NCBI GenBank assembly: GCA_963842295.1
Contig: CAWJFY010000007.1
Span: 180,136-244,135 of the forward strand
From: an uncultured Actinomycetota bacterium
Lineage (GTDB): Bacteria > Actinomycetota > UBA4738 > HRBIN12
Reading direction: 5' to 3'
DNA: 64,000 bases
Under the pieces are notes generated by a model. The model had not been told where the DNA came from and ran no database searches. It worked only from the letters and a program-made list of their open reading frames with translations. A program made the translations under genes and the position numbers. Every line of letters begins with the position of its first letter. Position 1 is the stretch's first letter. Of this stretch, positions 1-48,634 are shown piece after piece.

Positions 1-59
1 GTCTAGGGCGCGCGACCGGCCGGTAAAGATCTACGATCGAGGTGATTCTGTGCTCGATC

Positions 60-240
60 TAGTGATTGGGCAAATTATACAACACGATGAGATGGGTGAT
101 ATGTTAATGGGTGATCACGTTATGCGGGTTCTTGTGTTTGTTTATAATTTGTTTATAATGGGATGATATATGTGGGTATAAGATGATATAGGATGATATG
201 GTTAGATATGTATGAGTGGGTATTGTGTGTGGTGTGAGTA
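60..240. repeat. AT-rich tract with short direct repeats (GATGATAT x3, GGGTGAT x2, TTTATAATxxGTTTATAAT), in a ~70% GC background
   Basis: Direct reading: the composition drops sharply to AT-rich and motifs recur at 10-20 nt spacing. The 63- and 106-aa ORFs here have no credible coding signal. Confidence 0.5.
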
Positions 241-247
241 ATTTTAG

Positions 248-294
248 GATCCGGTGCCCGAAAGGGCGTGGGGGTTCAAATCCCCCCTCTCGCA
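248..294 (+). other. Orphan tRNA 3'-half: small hairpin, T-arm GGGGG-TTCAAAT-CCCCC, acceptor 3' strand CTCTCGC and discriminator A, with no 5' half. Likely an att-site copy.
   Basis: A canonical T-loop (TTCAAAT) is flanked by a 5-bp GC stem, followed by 7 nt and a discriminator. No complementary GCGAGAG acceptor 5' strand exists upstream. Confidence 0.5.
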
Positions 295-450
295 CTCTCC
301 TGCTCGATGAGAGCAGCTGTCGCCGACCGGGAACCTACCTACTCATCTCGAAACCGCGATGTCTCGCTCGCGAGCGGGTCGTGATCTCCCTGCGGCGACA
401 GCTCCTCTCCCTGTACCGTCGTTGCGCGACTGATCGGGACGGAGTCGGTC

Positions 451-1176
451 ATGGACGGAGAGACGCAGTGCGGCGGCGCGGTAGCGGTCATCGCCCTTCT
501 TGGGGTGGTGGCGGGCGGTTGCGGACTACTCGGTGAAGCGGGGTCGGGCGTCCTCGTCACGCGCCCGATCCAGGTTCCGGCCGGGATCGAGCGTGTCGAG
601 ATCGGCGACGCATTCCGCTCGACGATCCGTGTCGGGAAGGCGGCTCCCTCGGGAGAGATCACGATCGACGACAACCTGCTCGACCGTCTCCGCGTCGAGG
701 TCGACGGCGACACGATCAGGATCGACCTGGACGGGCGGGTTCGCGATGCGACGCTCCGCGCGGACATCGGCCTCGTCGGCCTCCGGAGTCTCGATGTCTC
801 GGGAGCGAGCCAGGTACGCGTGGAGGGCCAAGTGACAGACGATCTGACGATCAACGCCTCCGGTGCGAGTGAGATCGAGATCGGCTCCGTCGAGCTCGAT
901 GAGCTTTTCCTCGATGCGAGCGGCGCGTCCCAGGTGTCGATCGAAGGGACGGCCGGGCACCTCCGCGCCGACGCCAGCGGCGCCAGCAACATCGCGTTGT
1001 TCGGGGTCGAGGCCGACGAGGCGGAGGTGGATGTCTCCGGCGCGAGCGAGGCGGAGCTCACCGTGCTCGGGCGGCTGGAGGCCCGTGCGTCAGGCGCATC
1101 GTCGGTCCGCTACCGCGGGGATCCCGACCGTGTCATCAGCGACGAGTCCGGCGCGAGCTCCGTGGAGCCAGCGTAG
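451..1176 (+). CDS. Putative lipoprotein with repeated 'SGAS' beta-solenoid units (DUF2807/GIN-domain-like)
   Basis: N-terminal signal with lipobox-like LLGVVAGGCG, and about 10 repeats of the D/E-x-SGAS-x-V/I motif. Confidence 0.5.
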   Translation: MDGETQCGGAVAVIALLGVVAGGCGLLGEAGSGVLVTRPIQVPAGIERVEIGDAFRSTIRVGKAAPSGEITIDDNLLDRLRVEVDGDTIRIDLDGRVRDATLRADIGLVGLRSLDVSGASQVRVEGQVTDDLTINASGASEIEIGSVELDELFLDASGASQVSIEGTAGHLRADASGASNIALFGVEADEAEVDVSGASEAELTVLGRLEARASGASSVRYRGDPDRVISDESGASSVEPA

Positions 1177-1208
1177 AGGCCAACGCTCCATCCTCGATCA
1201 CTCTGCGG

Positions 1209-2042
1209 TCAGCCCATCTCGCGGAGCGTGCGGAGCACGGCGGGGAGAACGGGATCGGATGAAGCCGTGTCCATCCCCAGGTGGTCCGTTCCCTCGATCG
1301 TGATGAACTCCGCGTTGGGGATCTCGGCGGCCGCACGCCGGGCCTGGTCGTGGAAGTCGACGTCCTCCTCGGCCGCACAGATGAGACATCGCACATCCCA
1401 CGCGCCGAGGTTCTCGCTGACCGGCCCCTCAGCCATCGCAGAGCGCCACGCGGCGCGCATCGCTGCCGGATCACACGCGAGGTACTCGACCCGGATGGCC
1501 TCCGGGTAGCGCCCAACGATCGCCTCGAACGCCTCGACGAGCGCTCCCATCCCCCGCTCCTTCGAAGCGGCCAACGCCTCTCCCACGACGCGGGTCAGCG
1601 GGCCGTTCGGCTCGATCGCATAGGGCTGCTGCCCGATGATTACGAGCGAGCGGATCCGTGTGGGTGCGTGTTCGCCGATCCCGAAACAGAGCCTCCCGCC
1701 CCAGGAGATGCCGATGAAGTGCGAGCGGTCGATGCCCCGGTCATCGAGCACCGCCACGACATCCCCGACACGCAGCGACATCGCGTACGCACTCGCGTCG
1801 TGTGGCTTGTCGCTGCGACCGTGGCCTCGATGATCGACGAAGACGATCCGAAACTCATCGGCGGCGTCCTGCATCGCTCTTGCGATCGGAGCGTTCCGTA
1901 CCTGGCCGATCGGATCGAGGAATCCTCCGAGGATCACAACCGGGATGCCATCACCGCCATCGTCCTCGAAGTACACCTGCATTCCGTCTAGGCCGTTCGT
2001 GACGTACGGCACGGAGACCCCCATCGGCTCGTCGCCCATCAT
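1209..2042 (-). CDS. Alpha/beta-hydrolase fold protein
   Basis: HRGHGRSD and GISWGG (nucleophile elbow) motifs. The start is taken at the internal MMGDEP; the long Arg-rich extension of the ORF is unlikely to be real. Confidence 0.6.
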   Translation of the reverse strand: MMGDEPMGVSVPYVTNGLDGMQVYFEDDGGDGIPVVILGGFLDPIGQVRNAPIARAMQDAADEFRIVFVDHRGHGRSDKPHDASAYAMSLRVGDVVAVLDDRGIDRSHFIGISWGGRLCFGIGEHAPTRIRSLVIIGQQPYAIEPNGPLTRVVGEALAASKERGMGALVEAFEAIVGRYPEAIRVEYLACDPAAMRAAWRSAMAEGPVSENLGAWDVRCLICAAEEDVDFHDQARRAAAEIPNAEFITIEGTDHLGMDTASSDPVLPAVLRTLREMG

Positions 2043-2287
2043 GGCACCCGGCGAAAGGGCCAGTGTCCGACGCCCACGGGACGATCCGGCGAGGCTGTAG
2101 GGTGGAGTCGAACAGGCGACCGCCTGTGGTTCGCGAAGACGTCCGAGTCTGCGGCTGCACTCCCGCAACTCCATGCTCTCTCGCCTCACGGATCGACCGC
2201 GACAGCTGATCCGCTACCAGGTGCACTGGCACTGCCAGGCAACGCATGGAGCGGTGCGCGCATTGCGCGCGGAGGGGAGACACGATC

Positions 2288-3178
2288 ATGGCGGACATAA
2301 GGAACATGAACGGCCTCACCGGACCGGGGCGGGACCCGGCTCCGGGCGGGCCTGATCCGACCCGACCGGACACGATCATCTTGATCCACGGACTCTGGAT
2401 GACACCGCGGAGCTGGGAGAACTGGATCACGCACTACACGGCCCGCGGCTACAAGGTCCTCGCCCCGGCATATCCCGGACTCGGGGTCGAGGTCGAGGCC
2501 CTGCGCGAGGATCCGTCCCCGATCGAGGCGCTGTCCGTGCCTGCAACCGTCGAGAGCCTCGAGACCCTGATCGGGGAGCTCGACCAGCAGCCGATCATCA
2601 TGGGTCACTCGTTCGGCGGCGCGCTCACCCAGATCCTTCTGGACCGTGGTTTCGGCGCAGCGGGAGTGGCGATCGACTCGGTGCCTGCCGAGGGCATCAA
2701 GGTCGTCCCGCCTTCGCAGATCAGGGCAAGCTTCCCGGTGCTGAAGAACCCCGCCAACCGCCACCGTGCCGTCGGGTTCACCCCGGAGCAGTTCCACTAC
2801 GCCTTCACCAACACGTTGAGCGAGGAAGAGTCCTTGGCGGCCTACGAGCGGTATCACGTTCCCGCACCTGGCAGCTGGGTGTGGGGTGGAGTGCTCGCCA
2901 ACTTCACACCGGGCCACCAGGACACCTACGTGGACTTCAAGAACGACGATCGCGCTCCGCTGCTGTTCATCGCAGGCGGAGAGGACAACATCATGCCTCC
3001 GTCGGTCAACGAGTCCAACGTGCATCACTACCGCAAGTCCCAAGCGGTCACCGACTACAAGGAGTTCCCGGGTCGCTCCCATTTCACGGTGGGACAGCAA
3101 GGCTGGGAGGAAGTCGCGGACTACGCCTTGGATTGGGCCAGGGAGCACGCCGCGCTCGCGCCGAGGCGGGCTGACTAG
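2288..3178 (+). CDS. Alpha/beta-hydrolase fold protein
   Basis: IILIHGLW and GHSFGG motifs, with ATG at 2288 (MADIRN). It is divergent from the neighbouring hydrolase. Confidence 0.6.
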   Translation: MADIRNMNGLTGPGRDPAPGGPDPTRPDTIILIHGLWMTPRSWENWITHYTARGYKVLAPAYPGLGVEVEALREDPSPIEALSVPATVESLETLIGELDQQPIIMGHSFGGALTQILLDRGFGAAGVAIDSVPAEGIKVVPPSQIRASFPVLKNPANRHRAVGFTPEQFHYAFTNTLSEEESLAAYERYHVPAPGSWVWGGVLANFTPGHQDTYVDFKNDDRAPLLFIAGGEDNIMPPSVNESNVHHYRKSQAVTDYKEFPGRSHFTVGQQGWEEVADYALDWAREHAALAPRRAD

Positions 3179-3386
3179 AGGATACGTTCGGCCGCGGATG
3201 CACTTTGGGCGGTGGGGCGGCGTGGGCGCCTCACCGCCCCCTCTGTCCTCAACCCGCTTGCGCTGCGACGAGACGGAGAGACTGCTCGAACGCTGCCCGC
3301 TACAGAGTTGCCCGTATCGCCGTAGGAACCCGCCGCGCATGGGCCTGAGCTAGGCTCTCGCCCACCGTCGAGGAAGGAACGGGCGC

Positions 3387-5018
3387 GTGGCCAAGGGCAC
3401 CGCCGACATCGAACGAGCCCGCGACGCTGCGCACCGGGAATCTTGGGCGGAGGCGTACGAGGTGCTCAGCCTGCTCGACCTCTCCGACCTGGAGCCTCTG
3501 GACCTCGAAGCGTTCGCCGACGCCGCCTGGTGGCTCTCGAAGATCGAGGAGTCGATCGCCGTCCGCCAGCGCTCGTATGCCGGGTACTCGGCGAAGGGGA
3601 ACGATGCCCAGGCGGCCGCCATGGCGGCGCGTCTCAGCGTCGAGCACTTCGTTCGCGGTGAGCCGGCGGTGGGAGCCGGCTGGCTGAGGAAGGCGCAGCG
3701 GCATGCTGCGGACGTGGCCGAGAGCCCCTTGCACGGATTCCTGCTCTTGGTGGATGCGACGGTCGCGCGGTTCAGCGGAGACAGCGGACGGGCGACGACG
3801 CTCGCGGATCGAGCCGCCGACATCGGACGACGATTCGGGGATCCAGACCTCTCGGCCATGGCGATCCATACCCAGGGACTTCTCCTCATCTCAGCAGGGG
3901 ACGTGACCAGCGGCGTGGCCCTCCTCGACGAGGCCATGACATCCGTCGTCTCCGGGGAGCTGAGCTCGTACTTCACCGGCATCGTGTACTGCAACGTCAT
4001 CGGAGCCTGCCTGGAGCTGGCGGACGTCCGGCGCGCCGGTCAATGGAGCGAAGCGGCGCGGAACTGGTGCGAATCCCTGCCCCCCGAGTCGCCGTTCCCA
4101 GGGATGTGCCGCATCAACCGTGCGGAGGTGGAGAGGCTACGGGGTGCCTGGACGGAGGCCGAGGCCGAGGCGACCCGAGCCTCCGAGGAGCTGATGAGCT
4201 TCGATCCCATGGCGGCCGCTCAGGCCATCTACGAGACGGGTGAGATCCGTCGCCGGATCGGCAACGACGCGGGAGCGGAGGAGTGCTTCACGCGTGCGCG
4301 TGAGATCGGGTTCGAACCGCAGCCCGGCCTGGCCCTCCTTCGCTTCGGGCAGGGGAAGCCCGACGCGGCGATGAAAGCCCTGCGGCTCGCGGCCGGCACC
4401 GGCACGCACAGCCGGCTCCAGCGCGCACGCCTCCTCACTGCGCAGGTGGATGTCGCGCTCGCGGTGTCGGATCTCGACACCGCGAGCGCCGCCACCGACC
4501 AGCTCAGAGCACTCGCGGACGAGACGGGAACGCCCGTGCTCGAGGCCACGGCAACGACCGCGCGCGGGTCGGTCGAACTGGCCCGTGAGGACATCACCGT
4601 TGCTGTCGAGAGCTTGCGTCGCGCCTGCGTGGCGTGGCGCGAGCTCCGGCTTCCCTACGAGGGGGCGCGCGCCCGGACGCTCTACGGCCTGGCCTTGCGC
4701 GCCGCCGGCGACGAAGACGACGCTCTCCTCGAGCTCCGCGCCGCCCTTTCCGCGTTCGAGCGCCTCGGCGCCGTCCCCGACGCTCGTAGCGTCGCCGGCA
4801 TGGTGTCCCATGGAACGCCATTGCCCGGAGGGCTCACGGCGCGAGAGGCCGAGGTCCTGCGCCTCGTCGCCGCGGGCAAGACGAATCGGGATATCGCCGC
4901 CGAGCTCGTGATCAGCGAGCACACCGTCGCCCGGCACCTGCAGAACATGTTCGTGAAACTGGGGGTTTCGTCGCGTTCCGCAGCGACGGCCTTCGCGTTC
5001 GAACACAGCCTCGTCTGA
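3387..5018 (+). CDS. LuxR-family transcriptional regulator (large TPR-like N-terminal domain plus C-terminal LuxR HTH)
   Basis: The C-terminus reads LTAREAEVLRLVAAGKTNRDIAAELVISEHTVARHLQNMFVKLGV. GTG start at 3387 with GAAGGAAC upstream. Confidence 0.7.
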   Translation: MAKGTADIERARDAAHRESWAEAYEVLSLLDLSDLEPLDLEAFADAAWWLSKIEESIAVRQRSYAGYSAKGNDAQAAAMAARLSVEHFVRGEPAVGAGWLRKAQRHAADVAESPLHGFLLLVDATVARFSGDSGRATTLADRAADIGRRFGDPDLSAMAIHTQGLLLISAGDVTSGVALLDEAMTSVVSGELSSYFTGIVYCNVIGACLELADVRRAGQWSEAARNWCESLPPESPFPGMCRINRAEVERLRGAWTEAEAEATRASEELMSFDPMAAAQAIYETGEIRRRIGNDAGAEECFTRAREIGFEPQPGLALLRFGQGKPDAAMKALRLAAGTGTHSRLQRARLLTAQVDVALAVSDLDTASAATDQLRALADETGTPVLEATATTARGSVELAREDITVAVESLRRACVAWRELRLPYEGARARTLYGLALRAAGDEDDALLELRAALSAFERLGAVPDARSVAGMVSHGTPLPGGLTAREAEVLRLVAAGKTNRDIAAELVISEHTVARHLQNMFVKLGVSSRSAATAFAFEHSLV

Positions 5019-5137
5019 GCACGGCTCGATGGTCATTCTTCACCACGAGGCTCCTGAACCATCTTGGCTGGTTTCGGCGATGAGCTCACGCGATCCATTG
5101 CCTACCGTCCTCCCCGACCCGATCGAAGGAGGCAGAG

Positions 5138-6259
5138 ATGGACGGAACGGGCACTGAGCGGTTCGACACCGTGATCATCGGCGGCGGCCAGGCAGGTCTC
5201 GCGACCGGCTACCACCTGAAGCGACGGAGCCTGCCGTTCATCATCCTGGATGCGCAGGAGCGCGTCGGCGACGCCTGGCGCACACGATGGGATTCGCTCC
5301 GCCTGTTCACGCCGGCCCGGTTCGACAAGCTCCCAGGCCTGCCGTTCCCAGCCCCGGCGTGGTCCTTCCCCACCAAGGATGAGATGGGCGACTATCTCGA
5401 GACGTACGCCCAGCTGTTCGACCTGCCCGTGCAAACCGGGGTCTCCGTGGATCGCCTCACGAGGGAGGGAGACCGCTACATCATCTCGGTCGGCGATCGC
5501 CGATTCGAAGCCGATCGGGTGGTCGTGTCGACCGGGGCGAACCGCGTCCCCAAGGTGCCAGGCTTCGCGTCCCAACTCGCTCCCCGTATCGTGCAGATGC
5601 ACTCGAGCGATTACCGAAATCCAACGCAGCTACGGGACGGCGGCGTGCTCCTCGTAGGTGTGGGGAACTCGGGAGCCGAGATCGCATTCGAGCTGTCGCG
5701 GACCCGCCGGACCTGGCTGGCGGGCAAGGAGTCGGGGCAGATCCCCGTGCGTCATGGGACCATCCGGGCGCGGCTCGGGTTCCACGTCTTCCGCTTCGTC
5801 GGGCACCACGTTCTGACGCTCCGCACGCCGATCGGGCGAAGGGCGCTGCCAAAGCTCGACACGAAGGCGGCGCCGCTCATCCGCGTGAGGTCGAAGGAAC
5901 TCGCCCGAGCAGGGGTCGAGCGAGTCCCCAGAGTGAGGGGCGTCCGAGATGGGCTGCCCGTCCTCGAGGATGGGCAGGTGCTCGAGGTGGAGAACGTGAT
6001 CTGGTGCACAGGCTTCCGTCAGGACTTCCCCTGGATCGACATCCCCGGCTTCCCTGAGGACGGGCGGCCCGTGCACGTCCGCGGAGTGGTGCCGTCCGAG
6101 CCCGGTCTCTATTTCGTCGGACTCGTCGGTCAGTATTCGTTCTCGTCGGACGTGATTCCTGGCGCGGGAAGGGATGCTGCCTACATCGCAAGGCAGATCG
6201 CCACACGGGCGCCCAAAGGTCCGTTGGCGGCCGACATGCCGGCCGCGGCGTCATCCTGA
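5138..6259 (+). CDS. FAD/NAD(P)-binding oxidoreductase (flavin monooxygenase-like)
   Basis: VIIGGGQAGL is followed by a second dinucleotide motif, VGVGNSGAEIA. Confidence 0.65.
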   Translation: MDGTGTERFDTVIIGGGQAGLATGYHLKRRSLPFIILDAQERVGDAWRTRWDSLRLFTPARFDKLPGLPFPAPAWSFPTKDEMGDYLETYAQLFDLPVQTGVSVDRLTREGDRYIISVGDRRFEADRVVVSTGANRVPKVPGFASQLAPRIVQMHSSDYRNPTQLRDGGVLLVGVGNSGAEIAFELSRTRRTWLAGKESGQIPVRHGTIRARLGFHVFRFVGHHVLTLRTPIGRRALPKLDTKAAPLIRVRSKELARAGVERVPRVRGVRDGLPVLEDGQVLEVENVIWCTGFRQDFPWIDIPGFPEDGRPVHVRGVVPSEPGLYFVGLVGQYSFSSDVIPGAGRDAAYIARQIATRAPKGPLAADMPAAASS

Positions 6260-6293
6260 CCCGCGACGCGGCGATGTCCCTGGAGAGACGGCC

Positions 6294-6989
6294 GTGATCA
6301 GCACGCTGCCCATACCGCCGTGGAGGCACGAGGTCGTGGCGCATGAACGATGGACCGTGAGCGCTCCGCCTGCAGCGGAGATGGACGACCTGCTTGACGA
6401 CACGAACGTCCGTCCCGGCGAGCGGATCCTGGAGGTCGATCTCGGCCCCCGCGCCACCGAAGGGTGGCGGCTACCGTTCACCGACGCCTCGTTCGACGAG
6501 GCCGTCTCCCGGCATGGGCTACAGCTCGTCGGGGATCGACGACGGGTCCTGTCCGAGATGCGGCGCGTGCTCGTCCCCGGTGGCCGGGTTGCCGTCTCCG
6601 TCTGGGGCAGGATCGACCGGAGCCCGGCGTTCGATGCGCTCGCCCATTCGCTCCAGCGGCGCATGGGCCCACGATCTTCGGACGCCGTCCATTGGCTCTT
6701 CTCGCTCTGCGACCCGGCAGACCTCCGCGCGATCCTCGCGGATGCGGATCTCGAACGCATCTGCGTACGAACCGCTTCTCGGACGAGCCGTCACGGATCG
6801 GTCGGCGAGTTCGTCCGATCGTTCGTTCCGACCTTTCCGGCGGCCTGGACACCGCCTGGGGCCTCCGACCCACGAGGGATCGTCGCCGATCTCGAGGAAA
6901 CGCTCGGCCCGTGGATCGACGGAGACGGGCGGCTCTGGGTGACGAACGAGGTGGTCGTCGGCGTTGCGAGGCGCCAGTCGGATGACTAG
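6294..6989 (+). CDS. SAM-methyltransferase-like protein, apparently lacking motif I (degenerate?)
   Basis: The LPFTDASFDEAV...MRRVLVPGGRVAVSVWG region resembles the Methyltransf_11 post-I/II region, but no GxGxG is present. The start is ambiguous (GTG 6294 or ATG 6381). Confidence 0.35.
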   Translation: MISTLPIPPWRHEVVAHERWTVSAPPAAEMDDLLDDTNVRPGERILEVDLGPRATEGWRLPFTDASFDEAVSRHGLQLVGDRRRVLSEMRRVLVPGGRVAVSVWGRIDRSPAFDALAHSLQRRMGPRSSDAVHWLFSLCDPADLRAILADADLERICVRTASRTSRHGSVGEFVRSFVPTFPAAWTPPGASDPRGIVADLEETLGPWIDGDGRLWVTNEVVVGVARRQSDD

Positions 6990-9515: not shown

Positions 9516-10264
9516 CGACCCACCTCCAGGACCATCCCCGGCACCGCGATGTCGATCGGCCCCGTGAAGGTCTCGGCGGCCTCGCGGATCGAGATCCGGT
9601 GATCGAGCTCGGGCGTCAGATGCGTGAGCACCAGGTGATCGGCGCCCGCGGCGGTCGCGACCTCGCCTGCCTGCGCCGCCGACAGATGGAACGGATAGAG
9701 CTTCGAAGCGTTCTGATACGTCGCCTCGCACAGGAACAGGTCGGCGTCGCGCCCCAGGGCGATCGCTGCCTCGCATGGTCCCGTGTCGCCGGTGTAGGAG
9801 AACACGACCCCACCAGCCTCGATCCGGTAGCCGAGCGAGAAGACGCCGATGTGCTGCATCTCGAACGGCGTGATCCTGAACGGTCCCAGCTCGAAGACGT
9901 CGCCTGGGGCCGCGGTGCGGAATTCGAAGGCCTCCGCCATCACGTTGCGCCCGTTCTCCGAAACGAGCGCTGCCGCGATGTCGGTGAATCCCCCCGGGGA
10001 CCAGAAGGGAAGACCTGGATGCCCCAGTCTCCCGTAGTGCCGCGCGTAGAACGTCGGGATGATGTCGACGTAGTGATCGGGATGACCGTGGGTGATGAGC
10101 ATCGCCCCGACGTCGTCGACGCCGACCACCTGCTGAAGGCGAGCGAACGTGCCGGTGCCGGCATCGACCTGCAGGTGATAGCCGTCCTGCGTGACCAGGT
10201 AGCCGCAGTTCTCGCCGCCGGCGCCGGGCCACGTGCCTTGCGCGCCCAGGACCGTCAGCTCCAC
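9512..10264 (-). CDS. MBL-fold metallo-hydrolase
   Basis: HGHPDHY motif. Conserved actinobacterial position between murI and rph. Confidence 0.7.
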
Positions 10265-48190: not shown

Positions 48191-48286
48191 CGACGACTCC
48201 TCGCAGGAGGATGTCCCGCGAGCCTCGCGAACGAGGGCCCTCCCGAGGGGAGGGCCTTCGCGCGACTTGCGGCAGGACGCGGATCG

Positions 48287-48634
48287 TGGAGGTGGCGGGA
48301 ATCGAACCCGCGTGACAGGGCGACCGTCTGGATCTTCTCCGGGCGCATCCGGTGGGTAGATCTCGCCTCGGGCCTCCCACCGGCGGAGGGGCCCTCGGCC
48401 AGCCCGGGTGAGATGTCCCTCGGAGGCCCCCGGACGGAACCTCCTCGGTGAGGCCTGCTTGCGATGCCCTGTCCGGGCCGCAGGCCCTCCCGGACGGACA
48501 GCTACCTATCTGCTAGGCAGCGAGCGCGTACTCTTCGTTGGCGCTTGTGTTGTTCCGGCGTTTTACGAGACTCCGGAGATCTCGGCCCGCTTCTCCCAGG
48601 CGATAACCGCCCTGCTCGAAGCCAGTACACCCCC
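48287..48634 (-). ncRNA. ssrA: tmRNA (ssrA), 348 nt, tag reading frame ending ...GCC AAC GAA GAG TAC GCG CTC GCT GCC TAG (ANEEYALAA*)
   Basis: 5' GGGGGUGUACUGGCUUCGAGCAGGG parallels E. coli GGGGCUGAUUCUGGAUUCGACGGG. 3' GCGGGUUCGAUUCCCGC-CACCUCC-A has a G3·U70 acceptor. YALAA-type tag with TAG stop at 48513-48515. smpB lies about 1.5 kb away, beyond the decarboxylase gene. Confidence 0.85.

Follow-up and report, generated by a model that had tools for sequence, protein, structure and literature searches.

Genomic islands that integrate into tRNA genes have their attachment (att) sites at one of three canonical sublocations, the anticodon loop, the T loop or the 3' end; they restore the tDNA that they split and leave a displaced fragment, which is a 3' fragment in 3760 of 3919 islands, and 2083 islands have anticodon-centred att sites (PMC4383910). 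Here we describe a junction that resembles theirs in a 64,000-nucleotide (nt) stretch of DNA (hereafter the window) from an uncultured Actinomycetota bacterium (contig CAWJFY010000007.1), where a 3' fragment of a tRNA-Leu(UAG) gene at 243-294 is preceded by a tract of 242 nt that has lost most of its top-strand cytosines. We consider it likely, on the strength of sequence comparisons, that the fragment marks the distal junction, of the right attachment site (attR) type, of DNA integrated by site-specific recombination. The closest described systems are tRNA-integrated islands, prophages and integrative elements that use a tyrosine integrase and belong to the anticodon-loop 'A' class (PMC4383910; Williams 2002, cited there). 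The locus shares with them the displaced 3' fragment, intact tDNA in relatives, foreign ORFans and a conserved arm, some 240 bp long, that carries direct repeats beside the core. It differs in that its arm is stripped of top-strand C and in that no integrase, regenerated tRNA or second junction was seen. The att junction is an ordinary example of tRNA-integrated islands; the cytosine-stripped arm is unusual.

The junction was placed by comparison with a 505-kb ENA contig (L001) that was found through a DUF2807 protein identical to the one encoded at window 451-1176. L001 is 99.3-99.8% identical to the window from 243 onwards, with no difference over 243-1244, and carries a complete tRNA-Leu(tag) gene at 9760-9845 as called by ARAGORN. 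The homology begins at window 243, which corresponds to L001 9793, with zero extension leftwards, and window 1-242 finds no match in 20.7 kb of L001 flank. Hand-mapping onto the L001 tRNA showed that position 243 is the first base of the 7-nt anticodon loop. The same intact tRNA-Leu(tag) lies between the YkuD and DUF2807 genes in L001, in a GTDB Actinomycetota metagenome-assembled genome with 84% protein identity (L002) and in two further relatives (L004 and L009). Alignment to relatives lacking an insertion had been proposed as a check when the window was first read from its sequence alone, and it yielded these four empty sites at the exact locus; since the tRNA is intact at the same place in four relatives, the empty site is the ancestral state. 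The features at the junction are as follows.

243-294, plus strand: displaced 3' part of tRNA-Leu(UAG), presumed att core (identity block); 52 of 52 bases identical to L001 9793-9845, L002 and L004.
243-249, no strand assigned: anticodon-loop heptamer TTTAGGA, left limit of empty-site homology and presumed strand-exchange (overlap) region.
295-450, plus strand: native chromosomal spacer 3' of the tRNA, on the chromosome side (B') of the junction, identical to L001.
451-1176: DUF2807 (PF10988) gene, the next gene after the spacer.

The 52-nt fragment consists of the anticodon loop TTTAGGA, the 3' anticodon-stem strand, a long variable arm (GCCC-GAAA-GGGC), the T arm, the 3' acceptor strand and the discriminator A. 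The sequence-only reading had recognized its last part as an orphan piece of tRNA (GGGGG-TTCAAAT-CCCCC-CTCTCGC-A, located at 270-294). The piece is indeed present and longer than had been described, and ARAGORN called no tRNA in the window, only a transfer-messenger RNA (tmRNA) at 48286-48634. CUA codons are in use (6 of 3387 codons), so that an intact copy of tRNA-Leu(UAG) should exist elsewhere in the genome. Of the features on which the Islander approach relies, the locus shows a tRNA 3' fragment beside non-syntenic DNA, an empty site in relatives and a crossover at a canonical sublocation.

The junction is repeated independently in a 9-kb contig (L003) from a different sample (ERZ25039591), which was found by way of a truncated DUF2807 homologue (P0062). 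Aligned to window 2-6964 at 97.7%, L003 shares the junction and continues for 2049 nt more on the left, into non-syntenic DNA with small minus-strand genes. Two adjacent genes encoding proteins of 243 and 219 amino acids (aa) lie at 644-2034 (minus strand) in L003 and at 922-2312 (plus strand) in a second contig, L006. Their products, which by eye appear to have hydrophobic N- and C-terminal segments, are membrane-protein ORFans without a Pfam, PHROG or NCBIfam match, and P0129, the one of the two that was searched, has a single relative among 5.8 billion proteins. Both genes are frameshifted in L003, consistent with an indel error rate of about 1% in that contig. The start of the gene of the P0129 type, a divergent 243-aa ORFan gene, lies about 15 nt left of window position 1, so that window 1-242 is the intergenic region upstream of it.

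L006 (JGI 3300086365 Ga0683585_0048561), which was reached through P0129, repeats the arm and the tRNA half elsewhere, in a genomic context that differs from that of the window. Read in the orientation of the window, it begins with a Meth_synt_2 gene, CCTGCTCACACC, the right part of the arm (equivalent to window 148-242) and a 3' half of tRNA-Leu(UAG); after the tRNA half come 132 nt, the 219-aa and 243-aa genes, the left part of the arm (equivalent to window 1-147), CTGCCCACAC and a truncated Meth_synt_2 gene. The tRNA half is a variant yet still tRNA-like Leu(UAG), and the homology between L003 and L006 stops one base past the tRNA 3' end, as expected of the core of an element-borne attachment site (attP). 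The right part of the arm and the tRNA core are together 92% identical between the two contigs, compared with 87% for the coding part, the right part of the arm alone having about 5 differences in 96 columns. These comparisons suggest that arm and tRNA half form a conserved portable unit and that the tRNA half of L006, being internal to element DNA, may be attP-like. When L006 was examined as an attP-type site the tRNA half was followed by the element's own genes, but the arm is in two parts, divided at an 11-mer, and the flanking DNA looks chromosomal.

In L006 a segment of 1866 nt (764-2629) is bounded by imperfect direct repeats, CTGCYCACAC(C), with one 11-mer copy at each end, and sits between the truncated and the complete Meth_synt_2 gene. 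The two copies are in tandem in the window (137-158) and in L003, and separated in L006; the 11-mer may mark a second place within the arm where recombination or cargo insertion occurs.

Two observations weigh against site-specific integration as we describe it. Neither an integrase nor a left attachment site (attL) nor an intact tRNA was seen in the DNA examined, that is the 2 kb of L003 left of the junction and L006; in particular these 2 kb of L003 contain no integrase or recombinase, no tRNA and no rep, tra or int genes. The split of the L006 arm at the tandem 11-mer, within chromosomal-looking DNA, is not explained by a simple attP picture. Among known phages and plasmids only the tRNA part of the window finds matches, the native arm, the upstream 2.3 kb and P0129 having none, and the native arm is also absent from viral contigs. 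An alternative is that a rearrangement, a deletion or a transposon broke the tRNA in its anticodon loop with no site-specific integration and no regenerated tRNA. It would fit with the missing attL and integrase and with upstream genes that are membrane-protein ORFans and not typical island hallmarks, and L006 does show a past rearrangement of the same DNA. However, the breakpoint falls exactly on the first anticodon-loop base, CUA codons are used, and in L006 the same arm is fused to a different tRNA-like Leu(UAG) 3' half with homology ending at the tRNA 3' end, which is hard to obtain from two random breaks. We regard this alternative as unlikely. With site-specific integration as the preferred reading, we infer an integrase and a regenerated tRNA at the far end of the element.

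It could also be proposed that the arm and the tRNA half together encode a functional RNA resembling a tRNA, or are one of the halves of a split tRNA gene. Indeed GGCGCGAG (GGTGTGAG in the window) pairs with the 3' acceptor strand with one mismatch, and the Rfam tRNA model aligns end to end with L003 2279-2341. That alignment nevertheless scores 18.7 bits against a gathering score of 29 (E 0.34), and by a hand estimate chance alone should give about three such 7-mer matches in 245 nt. The folding energy is no better than that of shuffled sequences (z 0.25 and -0.64), the D arm and the 5' anticodon-stem strand are both missing, and an Rfam scan gave no family above threshold in the tract. A functional RNA of this sort is in our view highly improbable.

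Other contigs break close to the fragment. The first base of L005 (ENA, long-read-style) corresponds to window 295 and that of L007 (Logan) to window 301, both just past the tRNA 3' end, and the short-read contigs L007 and L008 end before the junction. The starts of L005 and L007 fit an assembly-graph branch at the right end of the 52-bp att core, or they may reflect strain variation.

Left of the junction the composition of the window changes abruptly. The GC content of 60-245 is 35% versus 68% for the remainder, the minimum of the 64 kb, and the second-lowest 200-nt window has 57.5%. This is a loss of one base on one strand: top-strand C is nearly gone (8 in the 186 nt of 60-245, and 2 in the 126 nt of 120-245), and G stands at its genomic level of 30%. 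The sequence-only reading, which had placed an attR here, was borne out on the low GC and on a displaced 3' part of a tRNA that borders inserted DNA, to which the empty sites, the L003 junction and the L006 arm all speak. It erred in taking the arm for natively AT-rich DNA resembling iterons or arm sites, because the homologous arm is about 65% GC in both L003 and L006 (65% over the L003 equivalent of window 1-242). Foreign DNA that is AT-rich by origin and carries integrase arm or iteron repeats would fit with the low GC and with the repeats, both of which are present in the window. Yet every difference from the GC-rich arm is at a C and the repeats exist in GC-rich form, and this explanation is scarcely tenable. 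The true parent of the tract was recognized only through L003; a reduced-alphabet search (C = T) of the window and of L001, for a nearby sequence of which the tract might be a C>T copy, gave only noise. The arm and the changes in it are as follows.

1-242, plus strand: element-side att arm, here cytosine-converted; gapless against L003 2049-2290 except for one 1-nt indel, and matching the two arm halves in L006.
5-242, plus strand: conversion tract with 50 top-strand C>T and 13 C>A changes; density about 30% at 1-60, 60-85% at 61-150 and 100% at 132-242, with a sharp end at 242/243.

Over 1-242 the window differs from L003 by 64 substitutions, made up of 50 C>T, 13 C>A and a single C>G (position 1), while not one G, A or T of L003 is changed; under uniform targeting the chance of at least 63 of 64 changes falling on C is 4e-27. 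Since the C is found both in L003 and in the outgroup L006 it is ancestral and the state of the window is derived. L006 matches the window at the single indel, which is thus an error of L003, and the 242 nt contain no non-C error. Counted in 30-nt bins from the left, converted C amount to 3/11, 3/10, 6/10, 8/10, 12/14, 11/11, 11/11 and 9/9, followed by 1/7 (position 242 only), 0/14 and 0/5. Conversion rises with position (rho 0.59, p 2e-9) and then ceases at once, from 43/43 converted to 0/25 across position 243 (p 4e-19). The last retained C is at 131, the last converted one at 242 and the first unconverted one beyond at 251, so that the boundary falls within the C-free heptamer TTTAGGA. Converted C have no neighbour preference on the 5' or the 3' side, but C>A is enriched within runs of C (10/23 vs 3/40, p 0.001). 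Outside the tract the substitutions relative to L003 and L001 are of an ordinary, mixed kind, and only 7 of them in 6.7 kb are C>T/A.

All four GATC sites in the tract (28-31, 35-38, 56-59 and 113-116) retain their C (C31, C38, C59 and C116). The rough chance of all four surviving at the local rates is about 0.07, and their retention could hint at methylation or protein protection.

Same-strand C mutation showers beside DNA breaks have been described in yeast and in cancer genomes, where they arise via resected single-stranded DNA (PMC3628087). A C-specific, one-strand pattern that is saturated at the core and decays leftwards is what a process starting at the core and moving leftwards would yield. 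In the mechanism that we regard as most likely, a nick or break at the core would be followed by resection (5'>3') or displacement of the bottom strand leftwards, which would leave the top strand single-stranded longest beside the core. Exposed top-strand C would then be deaminated, excised or otherwise damaged, and gap filling would copy uracil to give C>T and abasic sites to give both C>T and C>A, after which the changes would be fixed. In a variant of this scheme the arm would be converted while the element is extrachromosomal, and the boundary would then be the crossover point. We infer here a single-stranded intermediate, a deaminating agent and heritability of the product. The specific proposal, a heritable strand-specific hypermutation that spreads from the recombination core, decays over more than 240 bp and records a single-stranded footprint attacked by a cytosine-directed activity, is put forward tentatively, with confidence well below even. 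Whether the cytosine loss is a real allele at all we judge to be finely balanced. The same holds for the favoured account as a whole, in which an attR-type junction, a natively GC-rich arm and a cytosine loss initiated at the core on a single strand are combined: its chances appear about equal either way.

The nearest parallel for the conversion is kataegis by AID/APOBEC enzymes (PMC3628087), in which the changes are likewise at C of one strand, lie by a DNA discontinuity and fall in density with distance. It differs in being eukaryotic, with mutations tens to hundreds of nt apart and in a TC or WRC context, whereas the tract here is saturated, context-free and 20% C>A. Of the signs of a deaminase, the changes are all at C of one strand and clustered, but they are neither C>T only (13/63 are C>A) nor set in a dinucleotide context.

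Other points count against a real, deaminase-like conversion. The 20% of C>A is not the product of simple deamination, the sequence-context preference that known DNA deaminases show is lacking, and no zinc-deaminase motif occurs in any frame of the 64 kb. A full-text literature search found no bacterial precedent for strand-specific C hypermutation. The converted tract was seen in the window alone and in neither L003 nor L006. It was absent from genome, metagenome and viral contig collections queried with an exact 31-mer and an exact 20-mer of the tract and with gapped or degenerate junction patterns.

These points bear on the main competitor, which keeps the same attR-type junction but holds that the loss of C is non-heritable, either as lesions on a few molecules or as a consensus fault at a poorly covered contig tip. 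If it were an artefact, reads of a co-occurring empty-site strain would have corrected the consensus only to the right of 243. The converted form is found in no other dataset. The tract makes up the first 242 nt of the window and may be a contig end with the weakest read support, a circumstance that also weakens the case for a real allele. Other assemblies break at the locus (L005 from 295, L007 from 301, L003 being only 9 kb), and the empty and occupied haplotypes seem to co-occur in ERZ25039591 (L005 and L003). On the other side the 242 nt show no indel and no error at another base, unlike single-read noise, and conversion has its minimum at the window end and its maximum inside, whereas a quality decay at a contig end would run the other way. 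The window moreover has a 3.7-kb segment that L003 ties to the occupied haplotype, with intact open reading frames (ORFs), so this haplotype was probably well covered. We take the competitor seriously and grant it a probability somewhat short of even.

Diversity-generating retroelements are adenine-specific and have a coding target, a template repeat and a nearby reverse transcriptase. Their base-specific rewriting of a tract of some 100-200 bp with one sharp boundary resembles what we see, and a retroelement-type, cytosine-specific mutagenic homing could be thought to have rewritten the arm from an unconverted template. The sharp boundary, the hairpin-forming GC-rich sequence that follows it and the polarity gradient recall such systems. 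The mutated base is nevertheless C and not A and goes to T or A only (apart from position 1), the tract is non-coding, there is no second copy of the arm in window 300-64000 nor in the 64 kb as a whole, and no nearby reverse transcriptase was found. Mutagenic homing seems to us very improbable.

A real allele would make the conversion the bacterial equivalent of break-associated mutation showers; it would show in vivo at which place and on which strand the attachment site opens, and would point to a cytosine-directed activity (for example a single-stranded DNA deaminase or glycosylase) that works on the DNA of mobile elements. An artefact would serve as a warning that a compositional "island edge" and "iterons" can come from base-specific damage or consensus errors at a strain-variable junction.

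The direct repeats that had been noticed from the sequence alone were all found in the tract, and they survive in the homologous arms in unconverted form, GATGATAT of the window being GACGACAC in L003 and L006. GATGATAT occurs three times (162, 182 and 192) where 0.32 would be expected over the whole window, and three copies are reached in 0 of 100 shuffles; ATGGGTGAT occurs at 92 and 107, and TTTGTTTATAA as a tandem pair at 137-158. When the tract itself is shuffled with its dinucleotides preserved, which is a stricter null, the excess of repeats over chance is only modest: an 8-mer occurs three times in 72 of 2000 shuffles (3.6%) and at least 7 repeated 9-mers in 5 of 2000 (0.25%). The self-similarity of the tract is maximal at a lag of 10 (0.47 vs about 0.32), and this peak and the local-shuffle tests are marginal to significant. 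The repeats within the arm are listed below.

92-115, plus strand: direct repeat ATGGGTGAT, two copies at a spacing of 15 nt; GGGTGAT unaltered in L003 and L006.
137-158, plus strand: tandem 11-mer, two copies of TTTGTTTATAA in the window and of CTGCTCACACC natively; the point at which the arm is split in L006.
162-209, plus strand: direct repeats in 10-bp phase, GATGATAT in the window and GACGACAC/T natively (three to four copies), 34-81 bp from the core; candidate arm-type recombinase-binding sites.
203-233, plus strand: 13-nt inverted repeat with a 5-nt spacer, in converted form; natively CGACACGCACGAG / CTCGTGCGTGGCG (L003 2251-2281), 10 nt from the core.

In the P' arm of lambda attP, arm-type Int sites form a tandem of three at intervals of about 10 bp, roughly 50-85 bp away from the core. 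The direct repeats here, three to four of them in 10-bp phase and 34-81 bp distant from the presumed crossover, are similarly arranged, although their sequence is unrelated. By this analogy the native arm would be a binding arm for a recombinase and accessory proteins, with the direct repeats GACGACAC, the tandem CTGCTCACACC, GGGTGAT and the 13-nt inverted repeat as likely binding sites.

Two further candidates in this region were discarded. An 8-bp repeat, TGCTCGAT, at 51-58 and 301-308 was considered as a target duplication, but it is a chance-level match and the arm runs on leftwards in L003; an ORF that reaches into the tract (54 aa, frame +2) has no homologue. Conversion turned CACACC into a perfect TATAAT at 143-148 and at 154-159, with TTGTGT 16 nt upstream of one copy. 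A scan for consensus promoters, which requires at least 4 of 6 matches per hexamer, reported none, and no consensus terminator was detected either. If the converted allele is real these hexamers may have made an outward-facing promoter.

A few observations concern the rest of the window. The tmRNA gene is on the minus strand and encodes the tag peptide ANEEYALAA; no duplicated tmRNA 3' end occurs in the window, and there is thus no sign of an island at the tmRNA site. The 3.7-kb segment mentioned above (window 3281-6962) is shared by the window and L003 and absent from the 99%-identical L001. It encodes a LuxR/GerE-type regulator (3387-5018) and an FMO-like flavin monooxygenase (5138-6259), together with an ORF at 6174-6989; the right edge of the segment coincides with the end of L003 and the left edge with the end of L005, and L002 has other DNA there. 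Between the tRNA fragment and the DUF2807 gene there is finally a 17-nt inverted repeat (309-325 and 393-409) whose arms, 94% complementary and 67 nt apart, are also present in L001.

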